Source of the DNA: Chitinophagaceae bacterium
GTDB taxonomy: Bacteria > Bacteroidota > Bacteroidia > Chitinophagales > Chitinophagaceae
Direction of reading: 5' to 3'
NCBI GenBank assembly: GCA_017988595.1
Contig: JAGNRR010000001.1
Coordinates: 1-33,508, forward strand
DNA: 33,508 nucleotides
Shown: positions 5,134 through 21,556 of the stretch, one piece after another
How positions within the stretch are numbered: position 1 is the stretch's first letter
Layout of the letters: every line of letters starts with the position of its first letter
Made by a program: the position numbers and the translations under genes
Notes under the pieces: model-generated
What the model was told of the DNA's origin: nothing
Seen by the model: only the letters and a program-made list of their open reading frames with translations
Databases searched by the model: none

Positions 5134-6453
5134 TTATTTGCAATTTTCTAGAACTAATTTTTCAGCATCATCATAACCTAATTCTATTGCTTTTTTAAAA
5201 TCTAAACAAGCACTTTCTTTTTGATTTAATTTTATTTTACAGATTCCACGATTGTTATATACCACACCCAAATTAGGGTTTAACTCAATTGCTTTATCAA
5301 AATCTTTTATAGCTTCTTGATAATTTTTTAACCCACATTTTGCATTTCCAAGATTAAAATAAGCATCTACATCATTTAGATTTAATTCTATTGATTTAGA
5401 ACAATCTGAAATAGCACCTAAGTAATCTTTTAATTCAACTTTTGCAAACCCACGATTGTTATAAGCTGCTGAAAAATCTGGGTTTAATTCTAATGCTTTA
5501 CTAAAGTCAAATATAGCACCTTGATTATCATTTAATAACACTTTTATTCTACCACGATTATAATAAAAATCTTCATCATTTTGGTTTAAGTCAATTGCTT
5601 TTGTATAATCCTCAATCGCTCCATAATAATCACCCAAATCTTCTTTTGTAATTCCACGATTATAATATACATCAGCCTCTTTTGGATTTATTTCAATCGC
5701 TTTTGTATAATCCTCAATCGCTCCTTTAAAATCTTCTAAATCATCTTTAACACTTCCACGGTTATAATAAGAATCAGCATCTTTAGGATTTATTTCAATT
5801 GCTTTCGTATAATCTTCTATTGCTCCATCAAAATCTTGAAATTCATGTTTTGCATTTCCTCGATTATAAAATGAATTATCTTTCATTGGATTTAATTCTA
5901 TTGCTTTTGTAAAATCTAAAATAGCTCCTTGATAATCTTCTAGTTTATCTTTTGCAACTCCACGATTATTATATATCTCGGCATCCTTTGGATTTAATTC
6001 AATTGCTTTTGTATAATCTTCTATTGCTCCTTTAAAATCTTCTAATTTATCTTTCACATCACCGCGGTTATAATAATTATCAGCATCTTTAGGATTTAAG
6101 TCAATTGCTTTTGTGTAATCTTCTATCGCTCCTTGATAATCTTTAAAATCATCTTTTACCATTCCACGATTATAATATCCTTTTTCATCTTTAGGATTTA
6201 AGTCAATTACTTTAGTAAAATCTTCTATTGCTCCTTGAAAATCTTTAAGATTAGCTTTTGCAATTCCGCGATTAATATATGCATTTATATATTTAGAATT
6301 TTTATTTATTGCTTTTGTAAAATTAGTAATAGCACCTTGATAGTCTTGTTTTTTAAATTTAAGATTTCCTTTTTTATAATAAACTTTACTTAAATTACAA
6401 CTACAAAATAAAATTGAAAATAAAACTAAAACAATAAGGAATATTTTTTTCAT
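5134..6453 (-). CDS. tetratricopeptide-repeat lipoprotein (12 consecutive TPR units)
   Basis: There is a signal peptide with a lipobox-like LFCSC. The motif GAIxD(Y/F)TKAI(E/D)(L/I)NPKDAxxYYNRG recurs 12 times with a 34-aa period. Confidence 0.88.
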   Translation of the reverse strand: MKKIFLIVLVLFSILFCSCNLSKVYYKKGNLKFKKQDYQGAITNFTKAINKNSKYINAYINRGIAKANLKDFQGAIEDFTKVIDLNPKDEKGYYNRGMVKDDFKDYQGAIEDYTKAIDLNPKDADNYYNRGDVKDKLEDFKGAIEDYTKAIELNPKDAEIYNNRGVAKDKLEDYQGAILDFTKAIELNPMKDNSFYNRGNAKHEFQDFDGAIEDYTKAIEINPKDADSYYNRGSVKDDLEDFKGAIEDYTKAIEINPKEADVYYNRGITKEDLGDYYGAIEDYTKAIDLNQNDEDFYYNRGRIKVLLNDNQGAIFDFSKALELNPDFSAAYNNRGFAKVELKDYLGAISDCSKSIELNLNDVDAYFNLGNAKCGLKNYQEAIKDFDKAIELNPNLGVVYNNRGICKIKLNQKESACLDFKKAIELGYDDAEKLVLENCK

Positions 6454-13935: not shown

Positions 13936-14583
13936 TCAATTTTCAAAAAACTTCAAGGCTTTTTTTTGCAATCTTGCAGCACCTTCAAAATAATGTCTCA
14001 TGGCATTTTTTTTCATAAAATTGCCTTTTTTACTTACGATGACATCGGTGAATCTCATTTTGCCATGCAGGGCTTCAAATTTTTCATTGTATAATATTAT
14101 ACCATAATTATTGGTAGAAGTAACTTCGCTACTATATACATATTGTTGTGCTCTGGCGTCCCAAAATTCTTTTGCTTGCAAATTAGTGTCGGCAGGATAA
14201 AATCCAATATCTGCAAAATAAAAATTATTTATTCCTATGGCTTCTATTTTTTTTTCTTTTTCAAAAGATTCAGCATCATAAAAAGTCATCTTTTCCCATT
14301 GATTTTTTTGTGCCAAATCGTAATCACTATCATAAAAAAAATAAACAGGACAATAGGTAAAATTTTCTTTGAAATCTCTTACAATTTCTTTGTTATAAGC
14401 CCTATCATCTTCTTGCACTTCTTTCACTTGATCGGCAGAACCATATTTTTTTAAATACTCAATTTTTCTAGTCGATGTTCTCAATTTAAATAAAATAACG
14501 GTTGGCTTACTATAGCTTGTATTTTGAGCAAAAGAAATTTCTACTATAGAAAATAAATAAATAAATAAGAAAATATATTTCAT
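13936..14583 (-). CDS. secreted hypothetical protein (215 aa)
   Basis: ORF with a signal peptide (IFLFIYLFSIVEISFAQ). I recognise no family. Confidence 0.55.
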   Translation of the reverse strand: MKYIFLFIYLFSIVEISFAQNTSYSKPTVILFKLRTSTRKIEYLKKYGSADQVKEVQEDDRAYNKEIVRDFKENFTYCPVYFFYDSDYDLAQKNQWEKMTFYDAESFEKEKKIEAIGINNFYFADIGFYPADTNLQAKEFWDARAQQYVYSSEVTSTNNYGIILYNEKFEALHGKMRFTDVIVSKKGNFMKKNAMRHYFEGAARLQKKALKFFEN

Positions 14584-14695
14584 CGCTTGTCAAAAATACA
14601 AAAAAAAATGAAATCTATTTTTTTATAAACGAACTCGATATTAATCCTGTGGTTTTTGTCCTCACAAATCAAGTTTAATAATTCAAAAAGCAAGT

Positions 14696-14731
14696 TAAAA
14701 AAAAATCGATTGGTTTGTGAGTCACAAACCA
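14696..14731 (-). terminator. perfect 21-bp palindrome TGGTTTGTGA-G-TCACAAACCA; on the minus strand it is followed after 5 nt by T10 (orphan terminator-like hairpin, or a dimeric operator)
   Basis: Arms at 14711-14720 and 14722-14731 are exact reverse complements. The A10 run at 14696-14705 reads as T10 on the minus strand. No minus-strand gene lies upstream of it. Confidence 0.4.
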
Positions 14732-14757
14732 CGGAAGAACCCTCCAAATAACTGTTA

Positions 14758-14925
14758 GTTGCTGTTTCAACAACATTTATTTCTGTTTCAATAACATTTG
14801 TTGCTGTTTCAACAATATTTGTTGCTATCGCACTCACATTAGTTGCTATTGCACTCAAATTAGTTGCTCTCGCAGTCACATTAGTTGCTCTCGCACAAAG
14901 ATTAGTTGCTGTCGCACAAAATAAA
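14758..14925. repeat. eight head-to-tail 21-bp iterons (GTTGCT at 14758, [TTTCT variant at 14779], 14800, 14821, 14842, 14863, 14884, 14905)
   Basis: The period is exactly 21 bp. There are two subfamilies: GTTGCTGTTTCAACAAYATTT (units 1-3) and GTTGCT(A/C/G)TCGCA(C/G)(T/A)(C/A)A(C/A/G)ATTA (units 4-7), with unit 8 degenerate at its end (AAATAAA). Confidence 0.92.
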
Positions 14926-14961
14926 TCGTGTCTCTGTCTTGAGAAATTGCATTTATGTGCT

Positions 14962-14969
14962 TATTTTTG
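14962..14969 (+). promoter_or_regulatory. candidate Bacteroidota -7 box (TATTTTTG) for the HTH gene
   Basis: It matches the TAnnTTTG consensus 26 nt upstream of ATG 14995, and a TTG lies about 15 nt further upstream (14947-14949). This is a motif match only. Confidence 0.4.
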
Positions 14970-14994
14970 GGTACTAAACCATAATTTATTAGAT

Positions 14995-15336
14995 ATGTTT
15001 AGTCTAAACCTAAAACAATTGTTGCTCGAAAAGGGAATAGTGAAACCTCACGCTTGGCTGTGCAAGCAAGGCATACAAAGCCCTATGGCGCATAAGCTAT
15101 TGAACAACAAATACCACAAATTGGATTTTCGTATCTTTAATATCCTTTGCACCAAAGCGCATTGCACCCCAAATGACATCTTAACTTGGACACCCGATGC
15201 ACCCTTGCCCGATATGAGCCAACATCCCTTGCAAGCCCTTGCCCCAAAAACGCCCCTGGACATTAGCAAAAAATTGCTTACCCTAAGTGCCGAAAAATTG
15301 GAAGCCGTGAATAAATTGATTGATGGAAGTGAATAA
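14995..15336 (+). CDS. Cro/C1-type (XRE family, HTH_26-like) helix-turn-helix protein
   Basis: MFSLNLKQLLLEKGIVKPHAWLCKQGIQSPMAHKLLNN...NILCTKAHCTPNDILTW fits the short Cro/C1 HTH pattern. I prefer ATG 14995 to the track's TTG 14947. GC is about 52% (31/60 and 32/60 on two lines I counted), against about 28% in the flanks. Confidence 0.8.
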   Translation: MFSLNLKQLLLEKGIVKPHAWLCKQGIQSPMAHKLLNNKYHKLDFRIFNILCTKAHCTPNDILTWTPDAPLPDMSQHPLQALAPKTPLDISKKLLTLSAEKLEAVNKLIDGSE

Positions 15337-15458
15337 TGATGAATTTAGAATTAAGAATTTAGAATTAATTACTAAATTTTGAAGATAATGAAATTTAATT
15401 ATTTTATTGTTTTAAAAAATAGAAGCCTTATATTTGAATATTAAAATCAAAAAAAGCA

Positions 15459-16589
15459 ATGGCTAATTTTTTCAAATATCTATTATTGTGTTCCACACTT
15501 AGTCTCATCATTGTGTCTTGTGGAAAAAAGCAAAGCCCAGATGAACCTTTTCCTATTTTTCATGAAAATGCAATTTATGTACCTACAGATAATGGAAAAG
15601 TAATTGTTTATAATCCAGAAACAGGCGCTAGAAAATATGAAATCAATGTAACAGGAAACTGTGTTGGCGCACCAGTTGTGGCTAACGATTATTTATACAT
15701 TGGCACCGATCAAAAAAAATTGTATTGTGTAGATTTATATACGCATAAAATAATTTGGGAAAAAACAACCAATGCACCAATTATTGGTGCATTAGCTACA
15801 AACGGCACGGTGGTTTATGTACCTACTAATAATTTAATTTGTTATGATAGCACAGGAACTGTAGTTTGGACATACACAGGTGGCGCTCAACCAGCATCTG
15901 GACCACAATATGTACCTGCAAATACTACAATTTTAACAAACCGAATCTATATTGCTATAGATGATAAAGTACATTGTGTGCAAGATAATGGTACAGGAAT
16001 TTGGCAATCAGCACCTGCTACTGCGCCAATAGTTTCTGCTGTGAATGTGAGCGAAGATTTTGTTTATTACGGTTCTGATGACAAAAAAATATATAAAATA
16101 AATGCTTCAAGTGGCACAGCAGTTTGGAATTATACTACAAGTGATGATGTAAAATCTTCGCCATTAGTTTATGGAGGAATGTGTATTGCGGGTAATGATG
16201 ACAATTATATTTATGATGTTGATGTGCCTTCTGGTTTGCTACGTTGGAAATTTAAAACAGAAAGCTTAGTTCGTTCTTCGCCTACTGTGCATGCACCAAG
16301 CAATACCATTTTAGTTGGTTCAAATGATTATAACTTATATGCACTTGATCATATCAATGGCACATTAAAATGGAAATATGCTACAGCTTCATTAATCGTT
16401 TCGTCGCCAGTAGTGCAAGGAAATAATGTATACTTTACATCATTTGATAATTACTTATATAGTGTTGATGCACGTTTAGGAACTTTAAATTGGAAACGTT
16501 CTTTAGATTTTCATTCAACAGGCTCTACTGTTATTGATATTGATAGCACACAATTTTATCCTGGAAATAGTGGCATGAGCACATTTTAA
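15459..16589 (+). CDS. PQQ-like (BamB-type) beta-propeller repeat lipoprotein
   Basis: Lipobox (LIIVSCGKK). Strand motifs of PQQ-like propellers repeat throughout (VYVPT, LYCVD...G...W, IYKINASSGTAVWNY, LYALDHINGTLKWKY, LYSVDARLGTLNWK). Confidence 0.8.
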   Translation: MANFFKYLLLCSTLSLIIVSCGKKQSPDEPFPIFHENAIYVPTDNGKVIVYNPETGARKYEINVTGNCVGAPVVANDYLYIGTDQKKLYCVDLYTHKIIWEKTTNAPIIGALATNGTVVYVPTNNLICYDSTGTVVWTYTGGAQPASGPQYVPANTTILTNRIYIAIDDKVHCVQDNGTGIWQSAPATAPIVSAVNVSEDFVYYGSDDKKIYKINASSGTAVWNYTTSDDVKSSPLVYGGMCIAGNDDNYIYDVDVPSGLLRWKFKTESLVRSSPTVHAPSNTILVGSNDYNLYALDHINGTLKWKYATASLIVSSPVVQGNNVYFTSFDNYLYSVDARLGTLNWKRSLDFHSTGSTVIDIDSTQFYPGNSGMSTF

Positions 16590-20527: not shown

Positions 20528-21556
20528 TTATTTATCTTTATTGTTTATTAATTGAATTAATGTTTCTTTACTCGGCAAAACTGTCAAATATTTACTTGCA
20601 AAAATTTGTGTATTATTTTCTGGCAAAGTGAATTCTACTACTGCTTCGCTTTTGTTTTGGCATAAAATGATTCCTATTGTTTTATTTTCTTCTTCTAGTT
20701 TTATCTGCCTGTCATAATAGTTGACATACATTTGCATTTGTCCAATATCTTGGTGTTTTAGTTCTCCAATTTTTAAGTCAATAAGTACAAAGCATTTTAA
20801 AATTCTGTTGTAAAACACTAAATCTACTCTAAAATGTTTATCGTCAAAACTGATTCTATTTTGTCTAGCCACAAACGTAAATCCATTTCCTAATTCTAAT
20901 AAAAAGTGTTCTAACTTATCAATTAGTTTTTGTTCTAAATCGCTTTCAGAATAGTTGGAATTTTCAGGTAAGCCAATGAACTCTAAAATATAAGGGTCTT
21001 TTATTGCATCTTGTGGTTTTTCTAAGGTTTGCCCATTTGTAGAAAGTTGTAAAATTTCATTTTTGTCTTTGCTTAATGCCAAACGAGTATAAAGGGCTGA
21101 GTCATATTGTCGGTTCAGTTCTCGTAAACTCCAATTGTTCTTATATGATTCTATTTCATAAAATTTTCTTTCCTGTTCGTCATCAATTCTCATCAACTTC
21201 ATATAATGCGACCAACTTAAATTGAATTCGTCAGACAGTGTCTTACTTTTTTTAAATTCCGCAGACAGTGTCTGCGTTTTTGAATAAACAGAATAAAATT
21301 GACGAATTTGTTCTAGATTTCTTTGTGAAAACCCTTTTCCAAATTCTTGTGTTAATCGTTCAGAAAGCGATTTTATTATTTGTTTACCATAATCAGCTCT
21401 TTCTTTACCGTTTTGTTCTTCTTCTATTATCATTCTTCCGATTTCAAAATAGGTCAAAACCATCGTGTGATTTACGGTCTGCAATACTTTAGTTCTTGCA
21501 GAAATTAGTAATTCTGATATTTTGGTTGCTAACTCATTTGAAACAATTTTATTCAT
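20528..21556 (-). CDS. DUF1016/YhcG-family PD-(D/E)XK nuclease-like protein, cassette gene
   Basis: N-terminal helical region ...YFEIGRMIIEEEQNGKERADYGKQIIKSLSERLTQEFGKGFSQRNLEQIRQFY is typical of DUF1016. The C-terminal RVDLVFY...VLIDLKIGEL supplies a D...(D/E)xK nuclease motif. ATG 21556 (MNKIVSNE) is preferred over the track start at 21604. Confidence 0.8.
   Translation of the reverse strand: MNKIVSNELATKISELLISARTKVLQTVNHTMVLTYFEIGRMIIEEEQNGKERADYGKQIIKSLSERLTQEFGKGFSQRNLEQIRQFYSVYSKTQTLSAEFKKSKTLSDEFNLSWSHYMKLMRIDDEQERKFYEIESYKNNWSLRELNRQYDSALYTRLALSKDKNEILQLSTNGQTLEKPQDAIKDPYILEFIGLPENSNYSESDLEQKLIDKLEHFLLELGNGFTFVARQNRISFDDKHFRVDLVFYNRILKCFVLIDLKIGELKHQDIGQMQMYVNYYDRQIKLEEENKTIGIILCQNKSEAVVEFTLPENNTQIFASKYLTVLPSKETLIQLINNKDK

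Follow-up and report, generated by a model that had tools for sequence, protein, structure and literature searches.

Why is a gene for a small helix-turn-helix (HTH) protein preceded by eight copies of a 21-bp direct repeat? The question is raised by a stretch of 33,508 nt from a Chitinophagaceae bacterium (GenBank assembly GCA_017988595.1, contig JAGNRR010000001.1, positions 1 to 33,508), which is called the window here. The initial annotation of this locus had taken the repeats and the gene, which encodes a Cro/C1-type protein of 113 amino acids (aa), for a compact and horizontally acquired module, either a relic or a minimal element, and had named an unusual cooperative regulatory array as the alternative. 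Our comparisons bear out the compact module and favour the alternative. Array, promoter and gene are conserved together in the Bacteroidota relatives examined, and the protein may well bind its own array.

The array in the window and its conserved extent

The eight units start at 14758, 14779, 14800, 14821, 14842, 14863, 14884 and 14905 and follow each other head to tail at a period of exactly 21 bp, with no insertion or deletion, just as first described. The division into two subfamilies also holds. The three distal units (1-3) are of the TTTCAAC type (TTTGTTGCTGTTTCAACAAYA), with unit 2 as a variant (ATTTCTGTTTCAATAACATTT), and the five proximal units (4-8) are of the TCGCAC type (TTAGTTGCTNTCGCACNNANA); the core TTAGTTKCTnT..CA is kept across the units. 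The autocorrelation of the array at lag 21 is 0.58 compared with 0.26 at other lags (z = 8.0), the top value among 222 window tiles. If as many as three mismatches are allowed, the 16-mer ATTAGTTGCTNTCGCA occurs seven times and only within the array; 1.4 occurrences are expected by chance, and none of 100 shuffles reached seven. Autocorrelation and shuffling together rule out a chance origin of the array. A Bacteroidetes-type promoter lies between the array and the gene (Table 1). Its TATTTTTG box follows the array at 36 nt and precedes the ATG (14995) by 25 nt, and the array ends 69 nt before the ATG, close to the 35 and 70 bp first estimated for box and start codon.

The extent of the module became visible in its relatives, for which W denotes the window module, L-numbers the DNA loci of relatives and P-numbers their proteins. 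A word-indexed search of 5.8 billion proteins returned one close relative, P0002, with 90% identity. In the four contigs of P0002 (L001-L004), the gene is preceded by nine 21-bp units of the window's type, but the neighbourhood is wholly unlike that of the window, with genes for type IX secretion system (T9SS) cargo to one side and a GNAT-fusion gene to the other. In blastn, W and L001-L004 match over 584 nt (85.8% identity). The match begins with the first unit and extends two bases beyond the stop codon, and the flanks of W and L001 are at random identity (29% and 42%). Within this block, the promoter stretch (14926-14994) is 84% identical in L001, and both promoter boxes are present there. 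The Saprospiraceae loci L041 and L024 share a block of 597 nt with 85% identity, which likewise starts at the first unit and ends two bases after the stop codon; their flanking housekeeping genes are 74-76% identical at the DNA level, with dissimilar cargo in between. By these alignments, two independent pairs agree that the conserved unit is exactly the array, the promoter and the gene. L052, a third relative of the window module, is 90.5% identical over 557 nt.

Comparison within these pairs indicates that purifying selection acts on both the protein and the array. Between W and L001, the ratio of nonsynonymous to synonymous substitutions (dN/dS) of the gene is 0.08, with a dS of 0.53, and the array is 0.80 identical compared with 0.62 at synonymous sites. 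Between L041 and L024, the corresponding ratio of uncorrected proportions (pN/pS) is 0.02, with a pS of 0.46, and the array is 0.76-0.78 identical compared with 0.54 at synonymous sites. Moreover, when the eight unit pairs of W and L001 are aligned, unit positions 1, 2, 5, 6, 8, 9, 11, 14 and 21 never differ. Since the arrays exceed synonymous-site identity and are conserved in a position-specific manner, the array sequence itself is constrained, and not its phase only. Unit composition differs between close relatives. The units visible in L052 (1-146) are all of the proximal TCGCAC type, while the window has three distal and five proximal units and L001 has five and four. Turnover of units is thus seen only at about 10% divergence. 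Samples that share one protein sequence showed no variation in the copy number (phase) of their units.

On the plus strand, the array does not appear to be part of a longer coding sequence, which would have spoken against the initial annotation. The possibility that it encodes an N-terminal extension of the HTH protein was rejected, as W has no start codon before 14947 and the 90%-identical L001 has two stop codons. In W, L052, L007 and L016, the plus-strand frame of the gene stays open upstream, and the N-termini of three long gene calls (P0012, P0020 and P0111) consist of 7-residue repeats, which are arrays translated in frame.

A family of HTH genes with upstream arrays

When 1.84 billion representatives of clusters at 50% identity were searched exhaustively with HMMER, 521 clusters matched at E <= 1e-3 and 87 still did so at E <= 1e-10, mostly proteins of 110-125 aa that align end to end. 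DNA of the relatives was taken from species genomes (L005-L011), from metagenomes (L013-L020) and by exact-protein look-up (L022-L027 and L028-L050), and about 20 different full-length members, 30-90% identical, were examined at the DNA level. Their hosts are Chitinophagales (Chitinophagaceae), Saprospiraceae and Flavobacteriales metagenome-assembled genomes (MAGs), and the sources annotate them just as 'helix-turn-helix transcriptional regulator'.

The check proposed in the initial annotation, whether homologues always follow similar arrays, came out positive for all of the about 20 full-length loci, which have 5 to about 19 units upstream at a period of exactly 21 or 42 bp. When the 300 nt upstream of the ATG were scanned at lags of 5-60, the best autocorrelation lag was 21 or 42 in 17 of 17 family loci (z = 2.7-9.4). 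By the same statistic, three controls from outside the family with weak HTH_26 matches (L010, L012 and L021) had no periodic upstream array. Three further loci, two from new lineages and one from a lineage already counted, give the same result; two additional arrays cut by contig ends and the three gene calls with 7-residue N-terminal repeats strengthen the linkage. The arrays start abruptly on the distal side; on the proximal side, some stop one to four unit-lengths short of the ATG and the others fade gradually until they reach it. Of 20 loci, 9 have an exact TAnnTTTG box, from 41 nt inside to 39 nt beyond the array end, and thus the last units cover the -33 or -7 region in many relatives.

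Unit sequences are unrelated between lineages and alike where the proteins are close (W/L001, L006/L007 and L016/L020). The similarity of unit consensuses correlates with protein identity (Mantel r = 0.31, p = 0.001) and is at background level below 50% protein identity. This divergence in step fits cognate specificity, though shared descent alone would also give a correlation. One Chitinophagales MAG has three copies of the module, L005 with an array of its own and L006 and L007 sharing a related one. Judged from these sequences, the relatives are a large, diverse and unannotated Bacteroidota family of self-contained modules, each an HTH_26 gene with its own array. A targeted full-text literature search found no description of such a family.

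The sole Pfam match of the window protein is HTH_26 (23.7 bits compared with a curated cut-off of 22, E = 5.7e-5, residues 5-68), and its relatives carry precomputed PF13443 matches. An AlphaFold2 model built with 40 family sequences as input (pLDDT, the predicted local distance difference test score, of 88.8) predicts that residues 1-65 form a five-helix HTH and a sheet of two strands, followed by a linker and short helices at 78-81, 90-96 and 99-112. The nearest PDB folds found by Foldseek are the N-terminal domain of SaPI2 Stl (Stl2), CylR2 and VanU, with a template modelling (TM) score of about 0.5 and a root-mean-square deviation of 1.6-2.5 over 65-68 residues, and Stl2 is also the best match in a PDB profile search (E = 9e-4). 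In the same structure and sequence comparisons, the C-terminal 45 residues matched nothing. Motifs common to the family are G14, C52, C57-T-P-N-D-L, W65-x-P and H77-P-L; speculatively, the near-invariant C52, C57 and H77 could be a metal or redox site. NCBIfam has no family for the protein, PADLOC, which covers known anti-phage defence systems, gave no matches for three family members or for a recurrent neighbour of about 315-321 aa (see below), and PHROGs gave only weak generic matches, for one relative.

What might the pair do? We lean, by somewhat more than an even chance, towards the explanation that the protein binds its own phased array cooperatively on one face of the DNA and controls its own promoter. 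Within this explanation, binding as such is the likelier part, and the sign of regulation is more tentative. The 21-bp repeats would be the binding sites of the adjacent HTH protein, with one protomer contacting each unit through its HTH. Since the period is exactly two helical turns, all bound protomers would lie on one face of the DNA. The conserved C-terminal extension (linker, H-P-L motif and three short helices) may touch the neighbouring protomer, which would give a cooperative head-to-tail filament, and the occupancy of the promoter-proximal units would set transcription of the gene, most likely by repression at high occupancy. The filament is proposed to set the synthesis of the protein because the array abuts the -33/-7 elements and overlaps them in many relatives. 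Furthermore, an internal sub-period of 10-11 bp, as expected of half-sites, is absent from the arrays tested, L022 excepted, and a period of exactly 21.0 bp without such a sub-period suggests a constraint that acts on the double helix. What the comparisons show is the conserved architecture, the purifying selection on protein and array, the divergence of the arrays in step with the proteins and the lack of any other conserved partner; binding, its stoichiometry, the sign of regulation and any cellular output are inferred.

Several observations weigh against this explanation. No further copies of the unit occur elsewhere in the window, apart from one chance 9-mer within a gene, so that no regulon is visible. 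The dyad symmetry of the units is not above that of shuffled controls (sum score 68 compared with 62.8, p = 0.12). Palindromic units were considered and rejected: some consensus units contain short palindromes (TAATCTGATTA and TTTGCAAA), yet the overall level does not exceed that of the shuffled controls. As CylR2 binds an inverted repeat and the units have no dyad, another mode of binding has to be assumed. The last clear unit in the window stops 16 nt 5' of the -33 TTG; simple occlusion of the promoter is therefore not evident there, and an activating geometry is equally possible. The strong bias towards C-ending codons hints at an abundant protein, which would be unusual for a simple autoregulator. 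Finally, cooperative binding does not explain why 14 of 18 arrays keep one minus-strand frame without stop codons, where about 6.5-7 are expected. Column permutation gave 6.45 such arrays (P < 0.001), randomised variants gave 6.85 +/- 1.7, and the best of 45 composition-matched triplet sets reached 10.

This excess over all three nulls would be accounted for if the array were also translated from the minus strand into a micro-protein of 7-residue repeats, which would make the module a divergent two-gene pair. Gene callers predict such open reading frames (ORFs), L041 and L024 both hold 73 codons open, and the frame in the window terminates in an ATGA overlap with the next gene. We nevertheless regard translation as quite improbable. 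The promoter-proximal end has no ATG, and the frame in the window offers no start-type codon before a GTG within unit 6; no TAnnTTTG box was seen by eye on the minus strand in 14926-14994. The predicted peptides are unrelated between loci, and the ends of the ORFs lie in non-homologous flanks. Variation between units peaks at codon position 2 and is lowest at position 3, the pN/pS of the frame is 1.05 and 1.16 in two orthologous pairs, and codon-usage scoring selects the open frame in just 6 of the 14 arrays. Consensus units show no excess of stop avoidance, and a within-array control is modest (0.025 compared with 0.058 on the minus strand, 0.029 compared with 0.049 on the plus strand). Thus, all evidence except stop avoidance speaks against a gene on the opposite strand, and the array is treated as probably non-coding. 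The plus strand has no matching stop-free excess across the arrays. In the window, the minus-strand frame runs on for 57 codons of spacer with a GC content of 24% before the ATGA overlap.

It is likewise improbable, in our judgement, that the HTH protein leaves the array unbound and that the repeats are a phase-dependent structural promoter element (bent or wrapping DNA) or a neutral travelling minisatellite. The period is kept while the unit sequence varies, the arrays of L016, L022 and L024 have phased T or A tracts, and the gene looks highly expressed, all of which would suit a structural element. However, the window's own units have no A-tracts, the arrays surpass synonymous sites in identity with position-specific conservation, and degenerate arrays retain a defined core motif. 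A neutral minisatellite would not persist in all of the about 20 lineages at one exact period.

If the favoured explanation, cooperative binding to the array, is right, every family member and its array would form a natural, orthogonal protein-operator pair whose two-turn geometry is fixed. Such pairs could serve as ready parts for synthetic regulation in Bacteroidota, as a clean system for following the co-evolution of DNA-binding specificity and sites, and as a model of how an Xre-type domain binds direct repeats cooperatively.

Base composition and genomic surroundings of the modules

Horizontal acquisition had been suggested by the GC content of the HTH gene, given as about 52%. The gene in fact has 42.7% overall compared with 31.1% for the window, and 55% is reached in a single line of 60 nt (15180-15239). 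Even so, the gene ranks within the top three of 664 window tiles of 342 nt by GC content. Family HTH genes are GC-richer than their own locus in 19 of 19 cases measured, and in 18 loci with enough background the GC content at third codon positions (GC3) is raised by 0.16 on average and third-position C/(C+T) by 0.21. Because the excess is family-wide, high GC is not evidence of transfer, and in Saprospiraceae the module occupies a syntenic chromosomal position. A GC-rich orphan gene in an AT-rich genome is thus no evidence of transfer here. The bias looks like that of a well-expressed gene or of another constraint at the nucleotide level.

The form of the module, with direct repeats of 17-22 bp at a two-turn spacing directly 5' of a small gene presumed to bind them, resembles that of a relic or minimal plasmid or phage origin (iterons and initiator) or of a partition site integrated in the chromosome. 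This origin is very improbable. Next to the HTH_26 match of the protein and its PQQ-like beta-propeller neighbour downstream, no Rep, ParA, ParM or TubZ domain and no nucleoside triphosphatase (NTPase) partner was found. The DnaA box TTATCCACA, with up to one mismatch, occurs 13 times in the window compared with 11.8 expected, and not at all within 14400-15500; no GC-skew switch was found at the locus. A replication origin or terminus was rejected on these grounds. Furthermore, searches of 72,556 plasmids (PLSDB), of 50,697 phages (INPHARED) and of IMG/VR gave no full-length homologue, and the GC excess across the family and the chromosomal housekeeping neighbours at a syntenic position also speak against a replicon. 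A known RNA identity was ruled out too, as the locus has no Rfam (even at E <= 1) or tRNA match.

No partner gene common to the loci was found among the neighbours examined. The HTH gene is monocistronic, and the genes downstream vary between loci and are often convergent. Candidates for a shared feature were rejected. The downstream genes for 597 aa in L001 and 596 aa in L008 are alike in size but unrelated (a GNAT fusion and LepA). The uvrA-like matches elsewhere are merely ABC ATPases, except in L002 and L003, where the uvrA copy has about 50% protein identity, may be a paralogue and gives no firm host divergence. A divergent promoter region shared with the left neighbour does not agree with the mixed orientation of that neighbour among loci.

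In two lineages, the surroundings are variable. The Saprospiraceae module is syntenic, with Glyco_transf_9, DUF6503, PhoD and Pyridox_oxase_2 on one side and alaS on the other, and the cargo differs on both sides of it (Por_Secre_tail; EAD11 and TPR; RelE). In a Chitinophagaceae lineage from ten metagenomes, the 114-aa protein is identical and the left flank, which includes a 321-aa gene of unknown family, is about 99% identical, but the similarity between samples stops 4-40 nt (in some, about 140 nt) past the HTH stop codon. Downstream, the samples (L028-L037) carry a D12 adenine methyltransferase, an N6_Mtase, GmrSD_N with HEPN, or unknown genes with MatE. A motif of about 30 nt (GAAATGTGGGGGAGAGGGAGTATTTTG) lies ahead of the breakpoints in most of these samples. 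In at least two lineages, the module therefore behaves, as cause or by tolerance, as a conserved anchor within DNA that is variable and often of the defence type. Does a protein-coated array at the edge of such DNA shape local genome plasticity?

It is possible, though unlikely, that autoregulation is secondary and that the protein bound to its array is a structural element: a roadblock to replication or transcription, an insulator or the anchor of a recombination hotspot. Such a role would explain the turnover of adjoining gene content, with a constant protein and left flank and cargo switching just past the stop codon in Chitinophagaceae, and with cargo varying on both sides of a site between Pyridox_oxase_2 and alaS in Saprospiraceae. 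The codon bias hinting at an abundant protein would agree with it. Yet hotspots may arise merely from tolerated insertion beside a dispensable gene, housekeeping flanks are stable in other lineages (L046-L050 and L008), and a skew switch is lacking at the locus. A wider form of this idea, which we find more doubtful, is that the modules are a new class of chromosomal protein-DNA landmarks, in which an abundant HTH protein polymerised on its private array stalls machinery or insulates. The module edges would then be a landing pad for the exchange of defence, toxin-antitoxin and surface-protein cargo, and orthogonal protein-array pairs would allow several anchors per genome without cross-talk.

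Among the neighbours, a protein family of about 315-321 aa adjoins the module in four lineages (Table 1). The window has no member of this family, for which Pfam, NCBIfam, PHROG, PADLOC and PDB sequence comparisons gave no match; the L017 member is followed by a DUF4145 gene. In the window, lpdA and uvrA had been taken for immediate neighbours, but each lies one gene beyond, behind the genes for a 215-aa secreted protein and a PQQ-like lipoprotein. The 215-aa protein has no reliable Pfam family (one sub-threshold DUF7843 match, 13.9 bits) and a 37%-identical relative in L017 (5684-6292, plus strand), 2.2 kb from the HTH module there. The terminator-like hairpin near the distal end of the array probably belongs to the host flank. 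Other repeats were noted in the window. The only lag-21 signal outside the array (5273-6347) is a 102-bp (34-codon) tandem repeat inside a minus-strand ORF (5134-6453), and its length is the period of a TPR repeat. Directly after the HTH stop codon and just beyond the conserved block, 15341-15368 holds two exact copies of a 14-bp unit (GAATTTAGAATTAA). At 21225-21281, a 30-bp unit (AATTCCGCAGACAGTGTCTGACTTTTTTTA) repeated 1.9 times, with a hairpin and T run, looks like a duplicated terminator. In L001, 7370-7470 between a T9SS-cargo gene and the array holds GC-rich, complementary segments built on CCCACGC/GCGTGGG, which may be structured RNA or terminators.

Table 1. Coordinates of the module, of its neighbours in the window and of a recurrent neighbouring gene in related loci
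Feature	Locus	Position	Strand	Basis or remark
Array of eight asymmetric 21-bp direct repeats	window	14755..14922 (TTAG register); 14758..14925 (register of the initial annotation)	+	sequence
Bacteroidetes-type promoter of the HTH gene: TTG 14939-14941, 20 nt, then TATTTTTG 14962-14969	window	14939..14969	+	sequence
HTH_26 gene (Cro/C1, CylR2-like), 113 aa	window	14995..15336	+	Pfam
Whole conserved module (array, promoter and gene)	window	14755..15338	+	blastn against L001-L004
Stop-free frame through the array, probably not a gene	window	14583..14960	-	TGA overlaps ATG of 215-aa gene (ATGA 14580-14583)
Terminator-like hairpin, TGGTTTGTGA-C-TCACAAACCA, then T run	window	14711..14731	-	24 nt outside the module, beyond the block common with L001
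215-aa secreted (signal-peptide) protein gene, array side	window	13936-14583	-	
PQQ-like beta-propeller lipoprotein gene, downstream neighbour	window	15459-16589	+	
Gene of the ~315-321-aa family	L001	1545-2489	-	
Gene of the ~315-321-aa family	L009	3706-4671	-	
Gene of the ~315-321-aa family	L017	823-1776	+	
Gene of the ~315-321-aa family	L019	<467	-	
Gene of the ~315-321-aa family	L028-L035	206-1171	-	

Comparison with known systems

Iteron origins pair direct repeats with Rep initiators such as RepA of pPS10 or pSC101, P1 RepA, R6K pi and RK2 TrfA. The module resembles them in its direct repeats of about 17-22 bp, spaced by about two turns and placed directly 5' of the gene for the (here presumed) binding protein, in the proposed single asymmetric site per protomer, and in element-specific units that diverge with the protein. 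It differs in that its protein has a 113-aa HTH_26 fold and not the two winged helices of Rep, in having 5 to about 19 units without DnaA boxes or a defined unwinding element by the array, and in being chromosomal and syntenic, with none on plasmids or phages.

In centromere-binding systems such as ParR-parC of R1, TubR-tubC and omega with the heptad repeats of pSM19035, small proteins coat phased direct repeats before their own promoter, and the cooperative complex also autoregulates. The module likewise combines a small DNA-binding protein with phased direct repeats before its own promoter, where coating is proposed here. Unlike these systems, it is monocistronic and chromosomal, has no gene for a partner NTPase (ParA, ParM or TubZ), and its protein has a Cro/C1-type HTH and not a ribbon-helix-helix or winged helix.

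Type III toxin-antitoxin systems, with repeats of about 34-40 nt and a toxin ribonuclease, were considered and rejected, as the units here are 21 bp long, the gene encodes an HTH protein, and there is no Rfam match. The -7 box in the window lies downstream of the array, unlike in these systems, in which the repeats are transcribed.

Among small HTH regulators, the C protein of restriction-modification systems is also of the Xre type with sites upstream of its own gene, and some relatives of the module stand directly 5' of methyltransferase or defence genes. However, C-boxes are paired inverted repeats, the structural match is weak and generic (TM about 0.4), and C genes travel with their restriction-modification system, whereas here the HTH gene stays and the cargo changes. 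The small HTH repressor C of phage P2, which acts in the prophage immunity switch, has an operator of two direct repeats about 22 bp apart from centre to centre. It is similar to the module in its small HTH protein and its direct repeats two helical turns apart near its own promoter (binding being proposed here), but it has two repeats compared with 5-19, and no phage genes lie by the module.

CylR2 binds its inverted repeat as a rigid dimer, and CylR2, VanU and Stl all act on single inverted-repeat operators. They are the best structural and sequence matches of the protein, with a five-helix HTH and a small beta-sheet in common. Unlike them, the module has 5-19 asymmetric direct repeats and an unmatched C-terminal extension of 45 residues. 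By analogy, the module thus appears closest in form to the iteron-Rep and centromere-binding-protein systems and closest in fold to the CylR2-type Xre repressors. Its members are best described as putative cognate pairs of a DNA-binding protein and an iteron-like operator array, which are chromosomal, orphan and apparently widespread in Bacteroidota.

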